Shown here: piece after piece, positions 3,133 through 13,718 of the stretch
Numbering within the stretch: position 1 is the stretch's first letter
How the letters are laid out: every line of letters begins with the position of its first letter
DNA from: Clostridiales bacterium
Lineage (GTDB): Bacteria; Bacillota; Clostridia; Christensenellales; CAG-138
Length of the DNA stretch: 64,000 bases
NCBI GenBank assembly: GCA_004556165.1
Contig: SFIR01000001.1
Location: forward strand, 66,336 to 130,335
Direction of reading: 5' to 3'
The notes under the pieces: generated by a model
Database searches by the model: none
Told to the model about the DNA's origin: nothing
Seen by the model: the letters and a program-made list of their open reading frames with translations, nothing else
Translations under genes and position numbers: made by a program

Positions 3133-4031
3133 CAGGACTTGGCGCGCTGATACGGCGCAACACGAAGCTCTACTTCAAGGACAAGGGGATGTTCTTCACC
3201 TCACTCATCACTCCTTTAATCCTGCTGGTGCTGTACGGTACCTTTTTAAGCAACGTATATGAGGAAACCTTCCGAGGCGCTCTTGAAGCGGCGGGAGCCA
3301 CGGTATCCGACAAGCTGATCGGCGGCTGCGTGGGCGGAGAGTTGGTATCCTCTCTGCTGGCGGTGAGCTGTGTAACGGTTGCCTTCTGTTCAAATCTGCT
3401 GATGGTGCAGGATAAGATTACCGGAGCTCGGCAAGATCTGACAATCGCACCGGTTCGCCCCGGTACGCTGGCGCTTGGCTACTATCTGTCCACGCTTCTA
3501 TCCACCCTGCTGATCTGCTTTGCGGCAACGGGTGTCTGCCTGGGGTATCTGGCTTATGTCGGTTGGTATCTGACCGCCGGGGATGCGGCAGCACTGCTGC
3601 TGGATGTGGTGCTGCTTGTGCTTTTCGGCACAGCGCTTTCCTCCTGCGTCAATTTCTTCCTGTCAACCAACGGGCAGGCCTCCGCAGTCGGCACCATTGT
3701 CAGCGCCGGGTACGGCTTTATCTGCGGAGCCTATATGCCGATCTCCCAATTCTCGGAGGGGCTGCAGAAGGTTATCTCCTTCCTGCCCGGTACCTACGGT
3801 ACTTCTCTGCTGCGCAACCATGCGCTGCGCGGAGTGTTTGAAGAAATGGGCGCGCAGGGCTTCCCGAGCGAGGCAGTAGAGGCGATCAAAGATAGTGTGG
3901 ACTGCAATTTGTATTTCTTTGGCAGCAAGGTGGAACTCCCCACCATGTACCTGGTGCTGATTGCGGGTATCGTGACCTTTGCCGGTCTGTATGTGCTGAT
4001 GAATATACTGTCCGGAAGGAAACGGGCATGA
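3129..4031 (+). CDS. ABC-2 type transporter permease
   Basis: ATGA overlap with the upstream ATPase gene. About 6 hydrophobic segments, ABC-2 permease-like layout. Confidence 0.8.
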   Translation: MTGLGALIRRNTKLYFKDKGMFFTSLITPLILLVLYGTFLSNVYEETFRGALEAAGATVSDKLIGGCVGGELVSSLLAVSCVTVAFCSNLLMVQDKITGARQDLTIAPVRPGTLALGYYLSTLLSTLLICFAATGVCLGYLAYVGWYLTAGDAAALLLDVVLLVLFGTALSSCVNFFLSTNGQASAVGTIVSAGYGFICGAYMPISQFSEGLQKVISFLPGTYGTSLLRNHALRGVFEEMGAQGFPSEAVEAIKDSVDCNLYFFGSKVELPTMYLVLIAGIVTFAGLYVLMNILSGRKRA

Positions 4032-4576: not shown

Positions 4577-5260
4577 ATGAAAATACTTGTTTTTAACGGA
4601 AGCCCTAAGAAGGAAGAGAGCGATACGCTCCACATCACCCGCGCATTTCTGGAGGGAATGGAGCAAACGGAGCCGCAGGAGGTCAGTATGATCCATGTCA
4701 TAGATCAGCATATTGAGTTCTGCTCCGGCTGCCTTTCCTGTATGCGAAACGGCGGTGTGTGCCGCCATAATGACGATATGCGCTTTATTCTGGAGCAGAT
4801 TCTTGCCGGCGATCTTCTGCTGTTCAGCTTTCCGCTTTACTGCTATGGAATGCCTGCCATGCTGAAAAACCTGATTGACAGAACTCTTCCATTGTCAAGC
4901 ATGGCGATGCAGAAGGTCGGTGACCGCTACGAGCATGTAGGTCAGGCGGATTTCTCCCACCTGAAATATCTGATGATCTGCGGCTGCGGATTTCCCAACA
5001 GCACGCATAATTTTGAACCCGCTGTGGCGCAGTTTAAGCTGATGTTCCCAAGCAGCCACACCATCATTACCGTTCCGGAAAGCCCCATGTTCAATGCGCC
5101 GGAGGCGGCAGCCGTTACCGTACCGAGACTGGAGCTTGTCAAAACCGCAGGAAAACAATATGCCGAATGCGGTGAGATCAACGCGGAATTACTGGCTGAG
5201 ATTTGCTCGCCGATGATTCCGGAGGAAGTCTATGCGCAGATAGTCAACGGCGAAGCATGA
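4577..5260 (+). CDS. flavodoxin-like fold NAD(P)H-dependent FMN reductase family protein
   Basis: MKILVFNGSPKKEESDT..CSGCLSCMRNGGVC..DDM..LLLFSFPLYCYGMPAMLKNLIDR is the typical pattern of this family. GAGGAGG RBS. Confidence 0.75.
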   Translation: MKILVFNGSPKKEESDTLHITRAFLEGMEQTEPQEVSMIHVIDQHIEFCSGCLSCMRNGGVCRHNDDMRFILEQILAGDLLLFSFPLYCYGMPAMLKNLIDRTLPLSSMAMQKVGDRYEHVGQADFSHLKYLMICGCGFPNSTHNFEPAVAQFKLMFPSSHTIITVPESPMFNAPEAAAVTVPRLELVKTAGKQYAECGEINAELLAEICSPMIPEEVYAQIVNGEA

Positions 5261-5301
5261 CAACGGAGCAAGAATGAGGCATCGCTGTACAGGTTGACGC
5301 A

Positions 5302-5820
5302 ATGAAAAAGATTCTTATCTCCAATCACAAACTGAATACCGCAGATGTCATTACAATGTTTCGCATTGCAGGAACAATACTGCTTGCGTTTTTGCGTCCG
5401 CTTTCGGCAGGTTTCCTCTCGGTCTATACTCTTACAGGGCTGACCGACGTGTTGGACGGATGGGTTGCGCGGAGGACAAAAACTGCCGGCGATTTCGGCG
5501 CAAAGCTGGACAGTATTGCAGATTTGTTGTTTTTCGCGGTGATGCTGATTCGGCTTTTTCCCGTCTTGCTGAAAGTGCTATCGGTACAGATTTGGTATGC
5601 GGTGGCTGGGATTCTCATTCTTCGCCTGATTGCGTATTGCGTGGCAGCAATCAAGTACCGCCGATTCGCTCCTCTGCACACATGGCTGAATAAGCTGACC
5701 GGTGGGGCAGTTTTTCTCCTGCCGTACATGATTCATCTTTCACGGGAAAGCTATGATGGAAATACAAAGTCAATCCTTCAGAATAGAATTGAACGAAGGA
5801 GTTTAAGGAGGATAAAATGA
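5302..5820 (+). CDS. CDP-alcohol phosphatidyltransferase family protein
   Basis: The motif DVLDGWVARRTKTAGDFGAKLDSIADLL matches D-x2-DG-x2-AR-x8-G-x3-D-x3-D. Multiple TM segments. Confidence 0.8.
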   Translation: MKKILISNHKLNTADVITMFRIAGTILLAFLRPLSAGFLSVYTLTGLTDVLDGWVARRTKTAGDFGAKLDSIADLLFFAVMLIRLFPVLLKVLSVQIWYAVAGILILRLIAYCVAAIKYRRFAPLHTWLNKLTGGAVFLLPYMIHLSRESYDGNTKSILQNRIERRSLRRIK

Positions 5821-6452
5821 TCTGTACATTCAACGAATCCATCCAAATCGAGGGCAGCCGTGCGTTTATCCGTATTCCGTTCAACGTATGGGAGGAAACC
5901 GGCTTAAAAGGGAATATCCCATGCCGTGTGACCATCGAAATCTACACCTTTGAATGCAAGCTCATACCCAAAGGAAACGGGAACTATCTGATTCCAATTC
6001 CGAAAAAAATCATGTCCCACCTTTCTGCGGAGGAATCATACAATGTTTTATTCGAACCCATTAGAACACTATCGCGGATCAATCATGACAGCCCCTATTC
6101 CGTGGAACATCCTATTCGAAGAATAGACGGGATCGAGGCAATACCCATACAGGCCGGCCTCTGTGGCCACTGCTGTGTTGCTATGCTGGCTGGGGTTCCT
6201 CTGGACGATGTGGTAGCTCTGATGGGAAAAGCCCATGCCTCTTGGTCTAAAGTATTGGAGGCATTGGATTATTTCGGGATTTCCTATTCAGCGAAAGCAG
6301 TTTATCCCAAAGGCAGTTCGTACCGATTGCCGACCTGCTGCATTGTTAATAACGATAACCGTTTTCTGCTTTGGTATCAGAGTTCCTTCTGCGGTGCAGC
6401 AGATGTGGATCCGAAGAAGACCATCAGCTATATTGAAGTCTACGTCGGCTGA
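5817..6452 (+). CDS. DUF1905-like N-terminal domain fused to a C39/papain-like Cys-peptidase-like domain
   Basis: The N-terminus (AFIRIPFNVWEETGLKGNIPCRVTIEIYTFECKLIPKGNGNYLIPIPKKI) resembles DUF1905. The C-terminal half (IQAGLCGHCCVAMLAGVPLDDV) resembles the Q..CG..C..M active-site stretch of C39-like peptidases. Confidence 0.45.
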   Translation: MICTFNESIQIEGSRAFIRIPFNVWEETGLKGNIPCRVTIEIYTFECKLIPKGNGNYLIPIPKKIMSHLSAEESYNVLFEPIRTLSRINHDSPYSVEHPIRRIDGIEAIPIQAGLCGHCCVAMLAGVPLDDVVALMGKAHASWSKVLEALDYFGISYSAKAVYPKGSSYRLPTCCIVNNDNRFLLWYQSSFCGAADVDPKKTISYIEVYVG

Positions 6453-6543
6453 AAACGTGAATTATCGGGCAGTCACGATAAAATGACTCTCTTGCAAAAA
6501 CGGACAGCGTAACCAACACAAAGGAGAAAGACTAACCGAGATC

Positions 6544-6882
6544 ATGGAATTCATCAAGCTGACACACGAGAATTTAGAGCGTGAGCATATCTGCTGCGCC
6601 ATCTCCAACAGCAAAGATGTGCAGGTCGTGTCAAAAAAGGCATGGCTGTCGGCTCGTCTGGATGAAGGACTTGTATTTCTCAAAGGGGACGTCCGAGGGA
6701 AATGCTTTATCGAATATATCACGGCGGAGTACGCCTGGGCACCCATTGACGCAGAAGGCTGCATGTTCATCGACTGTTTATGAGTCTCGGGGCAGTTCAT
6801 TTGGTTATTACAGTTGTCAGCAGATCGCCGCATTGTGAACCCGCAAATTAGTATTCCACAACGGGAGTTTCGAGATGATTAG
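6544..6882 (+). pseudogene. GNAT/YoaP-like N-acetyltransferase remnant (in-frame TGA, 3' truncated)
   Basis: The N-terminus (EHICCAISNSKD..KKAWLSARLDEGLVFLKGDVRGKCFIEYITAEYAWAPIDAEGCMFIDC) looks like that of the YoaP-like GNAT family. A TGA at 6781-6783 sits where the family has Trp, and VSGQF follows in frame. Similarity is then lost, with a second stop at 6880-6882. Confidence 0.5.
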
Positions 6883-7059
6883 CAACCGAACCGGTTGTGT
6901 AGGAATAGCGGTGTTTCCAGATGATGTTTCCTTAGGAAAGCAGGTGCAGAGAACCGTTCAACCAAGCTCAAAGCTGACTGAGCGAGCCTCTCAAGCTCAG
7001 ATTGCAGCATTCGGCTGTGCGTTGTGCAATACTTTTTTCGTTTGCATTACAATATTTAT

Positions 7060-7482
7060 TTAATGTCTTATTGTCGGAAAAGCATTTAATCCATTTTTAT
7101 ATACTGCACTCCGTAGCCATATGATGATTGCAGTATTGGGAACAGATGCAAACACTGCATAGAATAATGATAGATTTACATCGAAGAAAGCAACTATAAT
7201 GTACCCAATAAGTATTGAAATACAAAACAGCAGATAGAACATATATATCATTCTGTATCTGCGAAATAGCTTCCGATTCTTTTCTTTAACGCGTGAAATC
7301 AAATATGACATATTTGCAATTTCAATCAAATTTCCCTTATGCTTCAGTTCTTTGTGCCTTGCTTTGAATTCAGCGCGCCTCAATTTACCGAATGCAATGT
7401 ACCTAAGAACCCTACGCAGGCTTTCGATTATAATCACATCACCCGTCAAAAGCAATAGAATGCCTATCAGCAATTCTTTCAT
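7060..7482 (-). CDS. hypothetical membrane protein (140 aa)
   Basis: ORF with a GAGGT RBS. Three hydrophobic segments separated by a Lys/Arg-rich loop. AT-rich composition. Confidence 0.55.
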   Translation of the reverse strand: MKELLIGILLLLTGDVIIIESLRRVLRYIAFGKLRRAEFKARHKELKHKGNLIEIANMSYLISRVKEKNRKLFRRYRMIYMFYLLFCISILIGYIIVAFFDVNLSLFYAVFASVPNTAIIIWLRSAVYKNGLNAFPTIRH

Positions 7483-7678
7483 GGGTTGACCTCAAACAAC
7501 ATTGCTTTCACTCACTAAAAATTCGATTTGATAACGGAAACAGCAGATCCATATACGGAGAACATATTAAATTCTCCGGGGTGCTCACTGTTCTTTCCTA
7601 CTCATCGTAGGTGGAATAATACGCCGTGATGCCGCAGGATATGCTGTTGAGCATGCCGCTGAAATCGCGGCCATATGC

Positions 7679-8284
7679 TCAATGCTGGGGTTCATTTGTA
7701 GAACAGGGGAGTATATATGTGTAAGCATACCATCCGTCCGATAAATCCTCATAACCGTACTTGCTGACCATATCGGTCATATCGCCTTTAGTAAAAAACA
7801 ACTCCAATCGGTCAAACTCGCCCTTATCAATCTCGCTTGGGTATATCCCGGAGAAGAACACTCCCATACTACCGGTATGCTCTTCCGTGATCCCATGCAT
7901 CCAAATAACCATTTCAGGGAACTTATTGCGCAGAAGGTCTATTGCCTCTTTTGCCGAATCGCTAATTGCGAATTGTTCTCCGTCAGTTTGCCCCTCCTCG
8001 CTAAACCCCAAAAAAGTGTTGCTGCCATCACCATAGTAATCGTAATAATAAAACTTGAACGGCTTTTCCTCAGTAATGCTAAGACTTTCCTCTGCAATAA
8101 CATTGAATAATTCCCGGATGCCATCGTCGGACTTGAAAACATCCACAAATAATTCGTGTTCATAAGTGGGTGATGGTGTTTCCGCACTGTTAGAGTTTAA
8201 GTTTTCACTGTTACCGTTTCCGGCCGTACATGCAGACAACAGCATCGTAAAGATAAGCAAGAAAAACAATATTAGTTTTTTCAT
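7679..8284 (-). CDS. hypothetical lipoprotein
   Basis: The internal ATG at 8284 is preceded by GGGAGA. Signal peptide with lipobox MKKLILFFLLIFTMLLSAC. The track ORF extends to 8362 only because the upstream frame is open. Confidence 0.6.
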   Translation of the reverse strand: MKKLILFFLLIFTMLLSACTAGNGNSENLNSNSAETPSPTYEHELFVDVFKSDDGIRELFNVIAEESLSITEEKPFKFYYYDYYGDGSNTFLGFSEEGQTDGEQFAISDSAKEAIDLLRNKFPEMVIWMHGITEEHTGSMGVFFSGIYPSEIDKGEFDRLELFFTKGDMTDMVSKYGYEDLSDGWYAYTYILPCSTNEPQH

Positions 8285-8365
8285 AAATCGTTTCTCCCTT
8301 CGCATTTTGATTATGGATATACTTGCTACCGCCGCCCTCAACGCAGGCGATAACCCCTGCAATAA

Positions 8366-8775
8366 CGCATAAGCGTTATGCCCAAGAACACCCTGACCGG
8401 TGGAAAGAGTGACGTCTGCGGAGATGAAGCGGCCAACCTCTGGGTTGCAGTAGCCGCTTTGCAGATATTACCGGCCCGTTTCTTCGTCCGCAAATCCGGA
8501 GATTGGCGGTGCAGACAATATCGCGATAGCGAAAGGGCTGCTCCGCGCCGAAGGTAACGGCGAGCGAGCCGGTTGTTGACAGCAGCCAGCCTCAAGCAAT
8601 CGAACCTCAACATCAAGCACAGTCAAGTTTTGCTTGATGCTGAACTATGTATATTCTACAACGGCAGATCCCGTTTTGTCAATCTGCTTTACTGTATTCG
8701 GTTCAGCTCCAAGTATCACAACGGATTCGCAAAGGCAGGTTTGAGATTACCGGCAACAGATAGATAATAGAAGAA
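8366..8775 (-). pseudogene. degenerate RHS/YD-repeat core C-terminal fragment
   Basis: The minus-strand frames give ..KTGSAVVEYT(stop), TGSLAVTFGAEQPFRYR and ADEETGR(stop)YLQSGYCNPEVGRFISADVTLSTGQGVLGHNAYA. This is the RHS core tip wording, broken by stops and frame changes. Confidence 0.55.
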
Positions 8776-9049
8776 TATCCTTCAAAGGTATGATAGCCTC
8801 TTGCCTTGCGCTTTGCGGCTTGCATACAGAAGGTCTAATGACTGCCACATGCGATACACTCTTGCCTTCTTTGGAAACTGTTTTGCAGCTTAAGATGTCT
8901 TTTCGGCATGTGCCTCGGTCCGGCGAGCCTTTGGAATCATCAACAGCTTTTGATTGACAGCGTTTTTCTTGCTCTTCGATGCGGAACATGCAATCTGATG
9001 AGTATCGGATTTTGACGAAACTCTTTCTCAAAATATAATGAAAAACCGC

Positions 9050-9081
9050 TTGACTCTCCCCTTAAGGGGAGATGATACAAT
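9050..9081 (+). promoter_or_regulatory. MerR-type promoter: TTGACT, 19-20 bp spacer containing the perfect palindrome CTCCCCTTAAGGGGAG, then TACAAT
   Basis: -35 at 9050-9055, palindrome at 9056-9071, -10 at 9076-9081. A MerR regulator is encoded downstream in the same operon. Confidence 0.6.
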
Positions 9082-9116
9082 CCAACTTGTTAAGAAAAGC
9101 AAGGAGGATTTTTACT

Positions 9117-9842
9117 ATGAACGAACCGGCTGTCAGCGTGAGAAACCTGACAAAATCGTTTTCAGGCCGCAGGGTTGTGGATGATTTGTCCTTCGATGTA
9201 CAAAAGGGCGAGGTCTTTGCCATGCTTGGGCACAACGGGACAGGCAAAAGCACCACAATAGATTTGATTCTGGGCTTGAAGGCACCTGAAAGAGGCTCCG
9301 CGAAGATTTTGGGAATGGACGCAGCAAAAAACAGAAAACAGGTGTTTGAGCGGGTTGGAGTTCAGCTTCAGAATACCCGGTATCAGCTCAACATCACCGT
9401 GGAGGAAGCATGCATAGAGTACGCCTCTTTATATGCCGACCCGGCAAACTATCCGAAGCTTCTGGAGCGATTCGGACTTGGTACACTAAGAAAGAGCTTC
9501 GTATCAAAGCTATCGGGAGGTGAAAGGCAGAAGCTTTCCGTTGTTCTGGCACTTATCGGCAGCCCTGAGATAGTCTTTCTGGACGAGCTGACAACAGGAT
9601 TGGATGTGGCGGCAAGGCGTGAGGTATGGAGAACCCTGAAGCAGCTTAAGGATCGGGGGCTTACAATCTTCCTGACCACCCATTACATGGAAGAGGCGGA
9701 AGCCCTCTGCGATCGGGTGTGTATCATCAAGTCAGGAAAGAAGGCTGCGGAAGGAACCATAGATGAGGTCATCTCGGCTTCGGGTCAAAAGAATCTGGAG
9801 GACGCATATCTGTTCTTTATGGGAGAGGAGGAATTGTTATGA
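9117..9842 (+). CDS. ABC transporter ATP-binding protein (ABC-2/DrrA-like)
   Basis: Walker A GHNGTGKST, signature LSGGERQKL, Walker B IVFLDELTTGLD. The ATG at 9117 lies 9 nt after AAGGAGG. The track start at 9072 lies inside the promoter. Confidence 0.9.
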   Translation: MNEPAVSVRNLTKSFSGRRVVDDLSFDVQKGEVFAMLGHNGTGKSTTIDLILGLKAPERGSAKILGMDAAKNRKQVFERVGVQLQNTRYQLNITVEEACIEYASLYADPANYPKLLERFGLGTLRKSFVSKLSGGERQKLSVVLALIGSPEIVFLDELTTGLDVAARREVWRTLKQLKDRGLTIFLTTHYMEEAEALCDRVCIIKSGKKAAEGTIDEVISASGQKNLEDAYLFFMGEEELL

Positions 9843-10576
9843 AGAGATTTTGGAAAATGTATCGGGTGGAGCAGAAGATATTCTTCAGAACCCCGGATGT
9901 GATTCTGTTTTGTCTGGCAATGCCGCTGGTGGTATTTGTTGTTATTACGATGATTACAGGAGGGAAAAATGCCGCTGATTCGGGTCTAACCTATCTGCAA
10001 AGCTCGTATGTGTCGCTGTCAACCGTGGGAATCTGCTGCAGCGCGTTCATGAGCATCCCCATCACCGTAGTTGAGCTGCGATCTCAGGGAATCCTGCGGC
10101 GGATGTACTGCAGTCCCTGTTCTCCGGCAAGGCTTCTTGCCTGCGATACCATATGCAGTGGTGTGGTCGCAGCTCTTTCAACACTGATTCTGACTATTGC
10201 AGCGGTGGTCTTCTTCGGCTACCGGATGCAGGGCAATGTGTTTGCGTACATAGCCGTGTGGCTGCTGACCATGATTTCCATGTTCTCCATCGGCCTCATG
10301 GCGGCGAGTTTATGCCGAACCACAAAATCAATGAATGTGGTCACGAGCCTGCTCTATTTTCCTATGCTGCTGTTCTCAGGGGCAACAATTCCTGCGGAAG
10401 TATTTCCGGGTGCTCTCCGTACATTTGCCGGGTGGATGCCCCTTGGAGTGGGAATCAGGCTGTTGAAATCGGTGTCCATTGGGTGTTATGATAATATCGT
10501 CATACCGATGGTCACACTGATCGCGATTACGGTCATTTGCGGCACCGTCGCCGTCAAAACATTCAGATGGGAGTAA
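9839..10576 (+). CDS. ABC-2 type transporter permease (DrrB-like)
   Basis: ATGA overlap with the ATPase gene. Six hydrophobic segments. Confidence 0.8.
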   Translation: MKRFWKMYRVEQKIFFRTPDVILFCLAMPLVVFVVITMITGGKNAADSGLTYLQSSYVSLSTVGICCSAFMSIPITVVELRSQGILRRMYCSPCSPARLLACDTICSGVVAALSTLILTIAAVVFFGYRMQGNVFAYIAVWLLTMISMFSIGLMAASLCRTTKSMNVVTSLLYFPMLLFSGATIPAEVFPGALRTFAGWMPLGVGIRLLKSVSIGCYDNIVIPMVTLIAITVICGTVAVKTFRWE

Positions 10577-10580
10577 GACT

Positions 10581-11435
10581 ATGGAAATGAAGCAAGAACA
10601 CAAGCCCTGCGAAGTCAAGACAAGCGATACACTCTATAAGATCGGCATGTTCGCGGCGATGAATCATGTTACCGTCAAAACCCTGCGCTTCTATGAGGAG
10701 CAGGGACTGCTGATACCGGCACTGATTCATCCTGATACCGGGTATCGGTATTATACACTCTCCCAGATGGCGGTGCTTCACCAGATCACCGCCTTGAAGC
10801 TGGCAGGATTCAAATTGGAGGAGATTGCCAACATCAATTCCGGGGCAGATGAGATAGCGGTACTGCTGAAGAAAAAGGCGGAGCTGCTTGAAAAGATCGC
10901 AGATATTACAAGACAGATTGCCGTTGTGGACGGTTATCTGGCCAAAAAGAAAACCGGGCTTTCTTCGCCCGTTCTGATAAAAACCATTCCCGAAACCACC
11001 GTGGCATTTATGCGTATCAGGCTTGAATCCTATGACTGCCTGTTTGACCGGATGCCGGAGATGGGCGCGCTGATGGAGAAAGCGGGCTGTGAATGCGCCC
11101 TTCCGGAATATTGCTTTACCGCCTATCCGGAACCGGGATACAAGGACGGGGATATCCCGGTTGAGATTTGTGAGTCCGTTGTGGAGGCAAAAAAGGAGAT
11201 CGGAGATCTGAAGTTCAAAACCATGCCCGAGATTCAGGCGGCCTGCGTTTTTCACAAGGGCTCCTACCGTACATTTTCGGAATCCTACGAAACCGTGCTG
11301 CGGTATATCGAGGAAAACGGGTGTGAGATCGCCGGAGAGATCCGTGAAAGCTATATCGACGGGGTTTGGAACAAGGATGATGAGAGCAGGTGGCTGTCGG
11401 AAATACAGGTGCCTGTCAGGAGAAAGACGGAATAA
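10581..11435 (+). CDS. MerR family transcriptional regulator with C-terminal GyrI-like effector-binding domain (BmrR-like)
   Basis: The N-terminal HTH is YKIGMFAAMNHVTVKTLRFYEEQGLL..GYRYY, followed by a coiled-coil linker. The C-terminal ~150 aa resemble the GyrI-like/AraC_E_bind fold (..AACVFHKGSYRTFSESYETVLRYIEENG..). Confidence 0.85.
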   Translation: MEMKQEHKPCEVKTSDTLYKIGMFAAMNHVTVKTLRFYEEQGLLIPALIHPDTGYRYYTLSQMAVLHQITALKLAGFKLEEIANINSGADEIAVLLKKKAELLEKIADITRQIAVVDGYLAKKKTGLSSPVLIKTIPETTVAFMRIRLESYDCLFDRMPEMGALMEKAGCECALPEYCFTAYPEPGYKDGDIPVEICESVVEAKKEIGDLKFKTMPEIQAACVFHKGSYRTFSESYETVLRYIEENGCEIAGEIRESYIDGVWNKDDESRWLSEIQVPVRRKTE

Positions 11436-11471: not shown

Positions 11472-13718
11472 ATGAACCAAGATAAAATTGTAATTCGTGG
11501 GCTTAGGCAAAACAATCTGAAAAATGTCTCTTTGGATATTCCAAAAGGTAAAATAGTGGTCTTTACCGGCGTCTCCGGCTCCGGGAAGTCCAGCATCGTC
11601 TTTGATACCATCGCCGCAGAAAGCCAACGGCAGATGAACGAGACCTATACAGCGTTCATGCGTGGGCGGCTGCCCAAGTACGAAAAGCCAAAGGTGGAGC
11701 TCATTGACAACCTCTCCGCTTCGGTCATTGTTGACCAGTCACGGCTGGGCGGAAACGCTCGCTCCACCGTGGGCACCATCAGCGATATGTACGCCGCCCT
11801 GCGGCTTCTCTATGCTCGCATCGGAACGCCCTATGTGGGGACGGCATCATATTTTTCATTCAACGACCCCAACGGCATGTGCAAGACCTGCTCCGGTATC
11901 GGAAAAATTCTGGATTTGGATATAGAAAGGGCCATAGACCCGGATAAATCATGGAACGAAGGTATGCTTGGTCTGCCTGCGTTCGGCGTGGGAAACTACT
12001 ACTGGAAGCAGTACACAGGCTCGGGTCTGTTCGACTTGGATAAAAAGTATCGGGACTACACTCCGGAAGAGCGGAATCTTCTGCTATTCGGCAGCAGGGA
12101 ACCGGGCGGACCCCGGGCGCATAAGAGGGTCGAGGGCATCAAAACACAGTTTCAGCGTCTGTGCCTCATGAAAGGTCCCGAGGAGCAGAACGATTACACG
12201 CTGCGCAAGCTCAATCAGTTTATGGAGGAGAAGACCTGTCCGGTTTGCAACGGGCGGAGGCTGAATGATAAGAGCCTTTCCTGCAAGGTGGCAGGATACG
12301 GCATCGACGAGATGTGCGCCATGGAATTTACCGAGCTGGTTAAGGTTTTGCGCACCATTGACGACCCCAGAGCCATAACCATAGTGGATGCCCTGACCGC
12401 TTCGCTGAACCGAATGATAGAAATCGGACTTCCGTATCTTTCCATGGATAGGGAATCAAGCACACTCTCCGGCGGCGAAGCCCAGCGGTTAAAACTTGTG
12501 CGGTACATGGGAAGCTCCCTCACCGGCATGACATACATCTTCGATGAGCCCAGCACAGGCATGCACCCACGGGATGTGTACCGCATGACAAGGCTTTTGC
12601 GGAGCCTGCGGGATAAGGGGAATACGGTGCTTGTGGTGGAGCACGACAAGGACGTGATTTCAATCGCCGACGAGGTCATAGACGTCGGCCCTCTGGCTGG
12701 AAAGAACGGCGGCGAGATTTTGTTTCAGGGTAGCTATGGAGACCTGCTGCGCTCCGGTACCCGTACCGGAAATGCGCTGAAGAATAATACCCCACTGAAA
12801 GCCGCGCCCCGCACGCCGCAGGACTTTTTACCGGTGCGAAACGCCTGCGTCCACAATCTGAAAAACGTGTCTGCGGACATACCGCTGAATGTACTGACGG
12901 TGGTCACCGGCGTGGCAGGCTCAGGAAAAAGCTCTCTCATCCGTGACGTATTCGCCAAGCAGTATGCCGACCGTGTAGTGCTGGTCGATCAGTCCCCGGT
13001 GACAGCCACAGGCAGGTCAACTCCAGCAACCTTTTTGGGCTTCTTTGATGAGATCCGCAAGGTCATGGCAGCGGAGAACGGTGTGGATGCCTCTTTGTTT
13101 TCCTTCAACAGCAAGGGGGCTTGTCCTGTCTGCTCGGGCAGGGGACAGATTGTAACGGAGCTGGTTTTCATGGATCCGGTTACAACCGTCTGCGAAGCCT
13201 GCGAGGGCAAGCGGTACAGCGAAGAGGCTCTGTCCTACCGTTATCACGGAAAGAATATCGTGGAGATTCTGGATATGTCCGCCGGGGAAGCCTACGAGTT
13301 TTTCAAGGAGAACAAAAAACTTCGCAAGGCTCTGGGAGCAATGCTGGAGGTGGGCTTGCCTTATCTTTCACTGGGACAGCCCCTGTCTACCCTGTCCGGA
13401 GGCGAGCGCCAAAGGGTGAAACTGGCGAAGTATCTGGACAAGAAGGGTAATATCTATGTGCTGGATGAGCCCACCACGGGCCTGCACGCTTCCGATGTTC
13501 AGAAGGTCATGGAGCTGCTGGACGGTCTGGTGGCTAGCTGCAACACGGTCATTGTCATCGAGCACAATCTGGATGTGATGAAACAGGCGGACTGGCTCAT
13601 TGATGTTGGCCCCGATGGCGGCACCGCCGGAGGAGAAATCGTATTTGCCGGTACCCCGAAGGAAATGGCAGATCGCGGCAGCACAATCACATCGGAATAT
13701 CTCAGAAAATCGCTGTGA
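11472..13718 (+). CDS. UvrA-like ABC ATPase, short paralogue lacking the UvrB-binding domain (DrrC/UvrA2-like)
   Basis: Two Walker A motifs (GVSGSGKSS, GVAGSGKSS) and two signatures (LSGGEAQRLKL, LSGGERQRVKL). Zn modules CKTCSGIG, CPVCNGRR, CPVCSGRG and CEACEGKR. ARIGTPYVG runs directly into FSFNDPNGMC. 748-749 aa (GTG at 11469 is an alternative start). Confidence 0.85.
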   Translation: MNQDKIVIRGLRQNNLKNVSLDIPKGKIVVFTGVSGSGKSSIVFDTIAAESQRQMNETYTAFMRGRLPKYEKPKVELIDNLSASVIVDQSRLGGNARSTVGTISDMYAALRLLYARIGTPYVGTASYFSFNDPNGMCKTCSGIGKILDLDIERAIDPDKSWNEGMLGLPAFGVGNYYWKQYTGSGLFDLDKKYRDYTPEERNLLLFGSREPGGPRAHKRVEGIKTQFQRLCLMKGPEEQNDYTLRKLNQFMEEKTCPVCNGRRLNDKSLSCKVAGYGIDEMCAMEFTELVKVLRTIDDPRAITIVDALTASLNRMIEIGLPYLSMDRESSTLSGGEAQRLKLVRYMGSSLTGMTYIFDEPSTGMHPRDVYRMTRLLRSLRDKGNTVLVVEHDKDVISIADEVIDVGPLAGKNGGEILFQGSYGDLLRSGTRTGNALKNNTPLKAAPRTPQDFLPVRNACVHNLKNVSADIPLNVLTVVTGVAGSGKSSLIRDVFAKQYADRVVLVDQSPVTATGRSTPATFLGFFDEIRKVMAAENGVDASLFSFNSKGACPVCSGRGQIVTELVFMDPVTTVCEACEGKRYSEEALSYRYHGKNIVEILDMSAGEAYEFFKENKKLRKALGAMLEVGLPYLSLGQPLSTLSGGERQRVKLAKYLDKKGNIYVLDEPTTGLHASDVQKVMELLDGLVASCNTVIVIEHNLDVMKQADWLIDVGPDGGTAGGEIVFAGTPKEMADRGSTITSEYLRKSL

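Follow-up and report, generated by a model that had tools for sequence, protein, structure and literature searches.

We find that an apparently ORF-free stretch of DNA, at positions 8707-8331 of the minus strand, is very probably the head of an RHS orphan cassette that has become a pseudogene: a one-copy recombinant derived from a toxin/immunity array, with functional genes downstream. (The window is the whole 64-kb stretch that was analysed; coordinates of the remnant are window positions, and it is read along the minus strand.) The host is uncultured, and its MAG records are labelled Eubacteriales, Clostridiales, or Christensenellales and come from pig and human gut samples. The remnant explains the apparent gap, and identifying it would by itself be routine pseudogene work. 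It also marks this place in the genome of an uncultured gut bacterium as one that once housed a toxin/immunity cassette. In the explanation that we propose, the remnant would be the last ~100 codons of an RHS core (..VKLIDKTGSxVVEYTY|DSWGKLLSTTGSLAxTFGAEQPFRYRGYVYDEETGxYYLQSRYYNPEVGRFISADVxLSTGQGVLGHNAYAYC..), and its source would be a toxin/immunity cassette array, of a kind that is common in gut Clostridia.

We have several pieces of evidence for the RHS origin. First, a 154-amino-acid peptide that was stitched together from the remnant has 216 relatives in a database of 5.8 billion proteins (best E = 6e-30; 56-82% identity). These relatives are named RHS repeat-associated core proteins and carry PF25023/PF05593, and the intact ones score 75-86 bits across the whole of TIGR03696, whose curated cutoff is 32.5 bits. 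(Bacillus subtilis WapA, a Gram-positive RHS/YD toxin, would have the same core-tip domain, TIGR03696.) Second, when seven intact relatives were compared to the whole window with tblastn, they matched at 8707-8366 only (E = 1e-19 to 1e-23). Identity was 85-88% over 8488-8366 and 65-85% over 8591-8514, with the closest relatives at 81-85%, and these searches found no RHS-like sequence elsewhere in the 64 kb. Third, a profile of the tip region upstream of the core domain has a sole six-frame match in the window, 'TVKQIDKTGSAVVEY' at 8695-8651 (E = 2e-4). Between 8710 and 9060, neither a DNA search nor this kind of profile search gave any RHS signal.

A sequence-only reading of this DNA had described a degenerate RHS core tip as four peptide pieces in three frames, with a TAG (8647-8645), a TAA (8470-8468), and no RHS shell upstream. 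The pieces, the frames, and the stops are all present as listed, the tip is indeed a decayed RHS core tip, and nothing similar to RHS/YD sequences lies upstream of ~8707 or elsewhere in the window. For the outermost piece (FFYYLSVAGN, 8775-8746), there is no statistical support: it matches neither a profile nor RHS sequences at the DNA level. The RHS-core profile search that the same reading had suggested gives a weak but real signal for TIGR03696. The unedited frame-0 translation scores 19.4 bits (E = 0.0011, profile positions 24-62) and the stitched peptide scores 24.1 bits (E = 3.8e-5). Both scores are under the cutoff, which is expected for a pseudogene, and Pfam has no match to the three frames or to the stitched peptide, so the assignment to the RHS family rests on homology to bona fide TIGR03696 members, which is significant. 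(Rfam has no family in 8200-9150.) The order of the motifs in the family, PFRYxGxYxDxETGxYYxxxRYYxPxxGRFxxxD ... NxYAY, is also preserved, as PFRYR / DEETGR*YLQSGYCNPEVGRFISAD / HNAYA, broken by a net +22 nt and the TAA. We dismiss the idea that non-coding DNA resembles RHS by chance, even with a score below the curated cutoff and a silent Pfam: with the E-value obtained among 5.8 billion proteins, and with 41 residues that are as much as 88% identical to those of proteins above the TIGR03696 cutoff, the resemblance is, by sequence comparison, far beyond chance.

We mapped the lesions with a nucleotide alignment of the window to the intact tip of another locus (L012), read along the minus strand. 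The remnant runs to about 8331, or ~35 nt beyond 8366. It opens with tip part 1 at 8707-8648 ('AEPNTVKQIDKTGSAVVEYT', which corresponds to AQGDVVKLIDKTGSTVVEYT of intact tips), which was found by tblastn and contains the profile match at 8695-8651. Next, an in-frame TAG (8647-8645) takes the place of the Tyr codon TAC of ..VVEYTY|DSWG.., and a 43-nt insertion (8644-8602) breaks the frame exactly between the Y and D codons. The 5' half of tip part 2, also identified by tblastn (8601-8522; 'FDCL.(G)WLLSTTGSLAVTFGAEQPFRYR'), has an extra T at 8588 that shifts the frame and is private to the window and three other contigs (L002, L004, and L007). It is followed by 33 nt (8521-8489) where the intact tip has 11 nt for GYVY, a net gain of 22 nt and another frameshift. 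(We ruled out this second insertion as a structured element from its RNA fold, with z = -0.8.) The 3' half of tip part 2 (8488-8366; 'DEETGR*YLQSGYCNPEVGRFISADVTLSTGQGVLGHNAYA') is the part with 85-88% identity and the matches to TIGR03696 positions 24-62, and its stop is a TAC to TAA change at 8470-8468. Finally, the degenerate end of the tip (8365-8331), which reads ..YCRG.. and keeps a trace of ..DESG, has gained a T at 8365/8364 and lost 8 nt near 8343, in the region of ..NNPVNxxDESG... Before part 1, a putative extra fragment ('FFYYLSVAGNLKP', 8775-8737, minus strand) is possibly a second partial copy of ..YYYYLRNAQGDIVKL.., as judged by inspection only. The two stops had been recognised in the sequence-only reading; its count of at least two frame changes was an underestimate, as there are at least five indels as well as the 43-nt insertion, which forms a hairpin.

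With two stops and several frameshifts, the remnant is not part of a single ORF that is continuous with an upstream YD-repeat shell. The autoproteolysis motif (..NNPVNxxDxxG..) is degraded by the +1 change and the 8-nt deletion, and the variable C-terminal toxin domain is wholly absent: just ~45 nt separate the last trace of the tip (8331) from the start of a lipoprotein gene (8284). Because the toxin domain is fully deleted, the remnant can neither encode nor donate a toxin. Two ORFs had been listed across this region, at 8338-8616 and 8747-9031, and both had been taken for wrong-frame readings of the remnant. This is mostly so for the first, which leaves the true frame at the extra T (8588), but its start (MLRFD, shared with intact orphans) is in the true frame. 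For the second, there is no support, except perhaps for its last few codons: it has no RHS signal, and no match outside its own species. Both ORFs are unlikely to be genes.

The closest relatives of the remnant are short orphan ORFs that combine a tip with a toxin, and they lie in arrays in MAGs of gut Clostridia/Christensenellales. The variable C-termini of some of these relatives belong to PF15607, PF15650, PF14220, or PF12385, and the small co-oriented genes in their arrays include the immunity/antitoxin families Barstar, DUF4304, and Imm-NTF2-2. Across 80 Clostridia genome loci, the classical layout is common: one tip after 1700-2400 in-frame codons, followed by several orphan tips at a spacing of 1.3-3 kb. 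A fragmented full-length RHS gene is present in the close clade (L015). This layout and this gene indicate that the family and its arrays are the well-known RHS main-plus-orphan system (PMC3150448, PMC3967940).

A few of these arrays have features of their own. In L012 (4367-9259), a tip ORF that is cut off at ..QNAQGDIVKL.. adjoins a divergent large serine recombinase, and a ribonuclease/Barstar pair lies further along. In the array of L219-L222 (~5461-6507 and 12320-12507), the ATG of an orphan tip-plus-toxin ORF (P0017) overlaps the stop of the preceding immunity-like gene (TAAATG); this arrangement suggests translational coupling. The same array, which is made up of long RHS fragments, adjoins a relaxase gene and may thus be part of a conjugative element.

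The comparison of strains shows how the window's allele relates to a longer one. Another genome of the same species (L001; GCA_034114545.1) shares the synteny of the window and is longer by 1444 bp. There, two tip remnants lie in tandem, at 8208-8417 and 9652-9862; they are direct repeats of ~210 bp that are 1444 bp apart. Between them are a decayed continuation (..ETGR*YLRSRYFYSDIGCFI..), a Cys-rich, immunity-like ORF of 85 amino acids (8549-8806), and a lipoprotein of 215 amino acids (8950-9597). In L040, a homologue of the 85-amino-acid ORF follows an RHS toxin ORF at a distance of ~200 nt, in the position of an immunity gene. The second tip of L001 has lost the -10 hexamer of the promoter discussed below and half of the hairpin, by a 45-nt deletion between CAAAAC repeats.

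The alleles with one copy (in the window, L003, L010, and L108) are differing SNP mosaics of the two L001 copies, with at least three crossover patterns. This implies several crossover or gene-conversion events, and it argues that cassettes are gained or lost by recombination between tips, in line with the earlier suggestion of an orphan recombination module or a decayed polymorphic-toxin locus. The core sequences that these alleles share are where homologous recombination rearranges the locus. Whether read as deletion or as insertion, the difference between L001 and the window may reflect the gain or the loss of a cassette. We propose that cassettes in this species would still be gained or lost by homologous recombination between direct tip repeats, that the window would be a one-copy recombinant, and that L001, with an immunity-like gene and a lipoprotein gene between its two tips, would be its two-copy counterpart. 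The population data indicate that the gain or loss of cassettes via tip remnants continues even after the toxin is gone.

What would remain functional at this locus is a pair of co-oriented genes for a lipoprotein and a membrane protein. The lipoprotein (7679-8284, minus strand; 201 amino acids, with the lipobox LLSAC) is at the immunity-gene position of the cassette, which makes it a candidate orphan immunity gene. It has its own ribosome-binding site at its start (8284), and the identical sequence is found on many contigs that are syntenic with the window. The ratio dN/dS is 0.31 relative to an 85%-identical homologue in L093, and it is 0.23 for the second lipoprotein (of 215 amino acids), so both are under purifying selection. 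The lipoprotein of the window has no family match and just 7 clusters of homologues, and an AlphaFold model from 6 sequences was unusable (pLDDT 48.8); an immunity role is thus a positional inference. Its position is compatible with that role, and it has homologues in another orphan array; it is a candidate immunity protein with a putative neutralising activity. Downstream of it and in the same orientation is a predicted membrane protein (7060-7482, minus strand; 140 amino acids), which is possibly further cargo of the cassette and is absent from the strain L006. Overall, we consider an orphan immunity or cargo role probable for both the lipoprotein and the membrane protein. Among the 80 genome loci, no homologue of either was found beside an intact toxin; the 85-amino-acid ORF of L001 is the only one of these genes with such a homologue.

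The array of L093, which is from another species, has homologues of both lipoproteins side by side (5172-10353). It is a different orphan array, with a tip (7152-7319) that is even more decayed than the one in the window and precedes the two lipoprotein genes, an ORF for a tip end plus a toxin (9471-9968), and Imm-NTF2-2-like genes, and it is flanked by WYL and RadA-like genes.

We then considered how the lipoprotein gene might be transcribed. A consensus scan predicts a sigma-70-like promoter within the tip (8682-8653, minus strand; TTGACA-N18-TAGAAT), which matches the consensus at 11/12 positions, points at the lipoprotein gene, and is encoded by the codons of ..IDKTGSAVVEY... The whole window has 11 sites with at least 11/12 matches, counting both strands, as compared to 1.1 expected from shuffled sequences, and 9 of the 10 others are within ~135 nt upstream of an ORF on the same strand. 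This enrichment and this placement imply that such matches are mostly real promoters in this genome, and that a simple consensus scan is unusually informative here. Between 9100 and 8284, the tip promoter is the only candidate on the minus strand with at least 9/12 matches.

The promoter can also be followed in related tips. Nearly all tips with at least 72% identity have a promoter site at the homologous position, and most distant RHS tips lack a match. Fourteen orphan tips have the same two hexamers, and their spacers differ. In L024, the -10 match is kept despite residue changes (VVSY, encoded with TATCAT, and VVQY, encoded with TACAAT), and in its copies L024a and L024c the homology to RHS begins at the -35 hexamer, behind AT-rich DNA. 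Even the heavily decayed remnant in L093 has a surviving promoter-like site (TTGACT-N17-TGtTAGTAT). Not every copy of the tip carries the promoter, as the second copy in L001 has no -10 hexamer.

These data suggest that the dead tip may be reused to provide the lipoprotein and membrane-protein genes with a promoter and a ~360-nt leader, and we hold this to be about evenly balanced. The remnant would then persist as a near-consensus promoter (8682-8653) and a ~360-nt leader that starts with a hairpin. The strongest alternative is that the remnant is a purely neutral relic, in which the hexamers are by-products of IDK../VVEY and the lipoprotein operon is transcribed from elsewhere. We regard this as a real possibility, if short of an even chance. 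The hexamers do overlap conserved residues of the tip (I-D and V-E-Y), so their conservation could be a by-product of coding, coding constraint, or gene conversion, and a neutral relic would also fit the scarcity of promoter matches in distant tips. But no other minus-strand candidate with at least 9/12 matches lies upstream of the lipoprotein, from which a neutral relic would have the operon transcribed, and the ten-fold enrichment of 11/12 matches in the window, nearly all of them before genes, also argues against it. So do L024, where the -10 hexamer was kept when the amino acids changed, and L093, where the promoter-like site was kept when the coding sequence was destroyed.

Another alternative starts from what is known of orphan rhs-CT/rhsI modules. 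In Salmonella Typhimurium LT2, and in E. coli and Dickeya, such modules lie downstream of a main rhs gene (PMC3967940, PMC3150448). Like them, the remnant has the conserved end of the core only, without a start codon or a delivery part, and it belongs to tandem arrays in which homologous recombination between shared core sequences brings about rearrangements. Unlike them, the window has no toxin domain and no main rhs within 64 kb, its tip is multiply broken, and its host is an uncultured Gram-positive gut bacterium that resembles Clostridia/Christensenellales. An orphan rhs module comprises a partial core, a toxin, and an immunity gene, downstream of a main rhs; here we found a partial core and a lipoprotein at the putative immunity position, with no toxin, no main rhs, and a divergent ABC operon upstream. 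The arrays of Clostridium (L029, L035, L036, and L042) have one long RHS gene with the same core-tip domain (TIGR03696), followed by several cassettes of tip, toxin, and immunity gene, whereas the window keeps just the dead tip.

By analogy with these systems, the remnant might be a silent module that is still usable, so that grafting it onto a full-length rhs elsewhere would activate a toxin. Parts of its tip are still 80-88% identical to intact tips, the population shows recombination between tips, and the mechanism is known from Salmonella (PMC3967940). We nevertheless consider this very unlikely. There is no toxin domain to graft in the ~45 nt before the lipoprotein, the region of homology carries stops and frameshifts, and the 64 kb contain no rhs gene and no other tip. 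Insofar as the sequence-only reading's orphan module was meant as a usable toxin cassette, the complete loss of the toxin domain excludes it. Another parallel is with orphan immunity islands. In Firmicutes, recombination takes place between tandem immunity paralogues, for instance T7SS immunity genes (PMC9484751). As in those islands, genes at the immunity position are kept after the loss of the toxin and their copy number changes through recombination between repeats. The difference is that the repeats that recombine here are remnants of toxin tips, and the lipoprotein of the window is a putative immunity protein.

The 43-nt insertion in the tip, which like the embedded promoter had escaped the sequence-only reading, deserves a closer description. 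It contains a 14-bp hairpin, in which 8644-8631 pairs with 8619-8606, and its predicted RNA fold has -19.5 kcal/mol (z = -2.5). It is at position 1 of TIGR03696 and 6-8 nt after the -10 hexamer, which is where transcription is predicted to start. Orphan tips of several unrelated assemblies have a 31-nt version at this Y|D site, and the same arrays also have uninterrupted copies. (Among other examples, 31-nt insertions are at 3653 and 5562 in L011, 1841 in L048, 1985 and 5127 in L149, and 895, 3924, 5822, and 9625 in L155, and there are six in L196.) These insertions fold as stems of 12-14 bp, with -16 to -23 kcal/mol and z-scores of -2 to -3.9. In an alignment of the hairpin, 98% of cells are paired and there is one compensatory pair, which is not significant: 189 of 500 shuffles did equally well. 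A polymorphism in the loop (T or G) switches which frame carries the stop. Some copies have, in GAATATGCT, an ATG that starts an ORF reading MLTSTAIEPLLRFDSWGKLL.., and dozens of ORF clusters in the database start inside the insertion (MRFDSWGKLL.. or MLTSTAIEPLLRFDSWGKLL..). When metagenomes were scanned for a 20-nt pattern from the insertion's 3' arm, 10 of 120 loci had RHS tips, and most loci were unrelated and from soil and marine samples. We ruled out a dispersed, REP-like mobile element: in all of the loci that we fetched, the hairpin is at the tip site only. In L219, an orphan starts within the 3' arm, so the hairpin may simply mark the boundary of the cassette. More generally, the hairpin may stabilise the 5' end or act as an operator, or it may be a neutral scar of the junction.

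The placement of the hairpin raised one more alternative, that the pieces are read as a single protein, by programmed frameshifting or by ribosomal bypass of the hairpin. The insertion is exactly between two codons with a stop beside the hairpin, both of its lengths (31 and 43 nt) are 1 modulo 3, and a +1 shift at GTT-TGA would bring ..DSWGKLL.. back into frame in some of the 31-nt copies. However, the take-off and landing codons are mismatched, the open frame differs among copies, and the L219 orphan starts inside the 3' arm. In the window's copy, four more lesions break the frame, there is a second stop, and the toxin domain is missing, and these rule out bypass or a +1 frameshift for the window. 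We consider a read-through protein to be extremely improbable.

If we return to the tip as a promoter and leader, a broader form of this idea is that the tip, in one clade of RHS arrays from gut Clostridia, is not just a handle for recombination but a self-contained expression unit. Its embedded promoter and a 31- or 43-nt stem-loop that breaks the toxin's frame would let orphan immunity genes be expressed and leave the toxins untranslated, and the hairpin at the 5' end of the transcript could be a stabiliser or an operator. We offer this as speculation and think it rather unlikely. There is a precedent for promoters in tips: in Salmonella, the main and orphan rhs have internal promoters in the conserved region, which make toxin-antitoxin modules of rhs-CT/rhsI (PMC7043789). 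As there, the promoter here would be in the core coding sequence, upstream of the toxin/immunity part, in every copy of the tip. It differs from the Salmonella promoters in that the window's promoter is a prediction, in its location (~250-300 nt before the end of the tip, versus 89 nt before PxxxxDPxGL in Salmonella), and in the frame-breaking hairpin insertion that directly follows the promoter in many copies in this clade. Should the promoter and the hairpin both have a function, this would account for the expression of orphan immunity genes without their toxins in Gram-positive RHS arrays, and for the persistence of dead tips. The remnant would otherwise be a decayed member of a well-known system, and the combination of promoter and hairpin might be the only part of our explanation that is new.

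We also examined the neighbourhood of the remnant. A MerR promoter had been placed at 9050, and this looks right: TTGACT-N20-TACAAT is at 9050-9081 on the plus strand, and its long spacer contains a perfect 16-bp palindrome (CTCCCCTTAAGGGGAG). A second promoter-like site, TTGACG-N16-TATAAT, is at 9012-9039 on the same strand. The two sites (9012-9081) precede an ABC-transporter operon (9072-10576) and a gene for a MerR/GyrI-like regulator (10581-11435). On the other side of the remnant, the region 5300-7500 varies among strains (as seen from the window and L001-L010). The gene for a CDP-alcohol phosphatidyltransferase (5302-5820) is absent from L001, L003, L008, and L009, and L006 lacks the whole block from the 140-amino-acid membrane protein to a flavodoxin-like gene.
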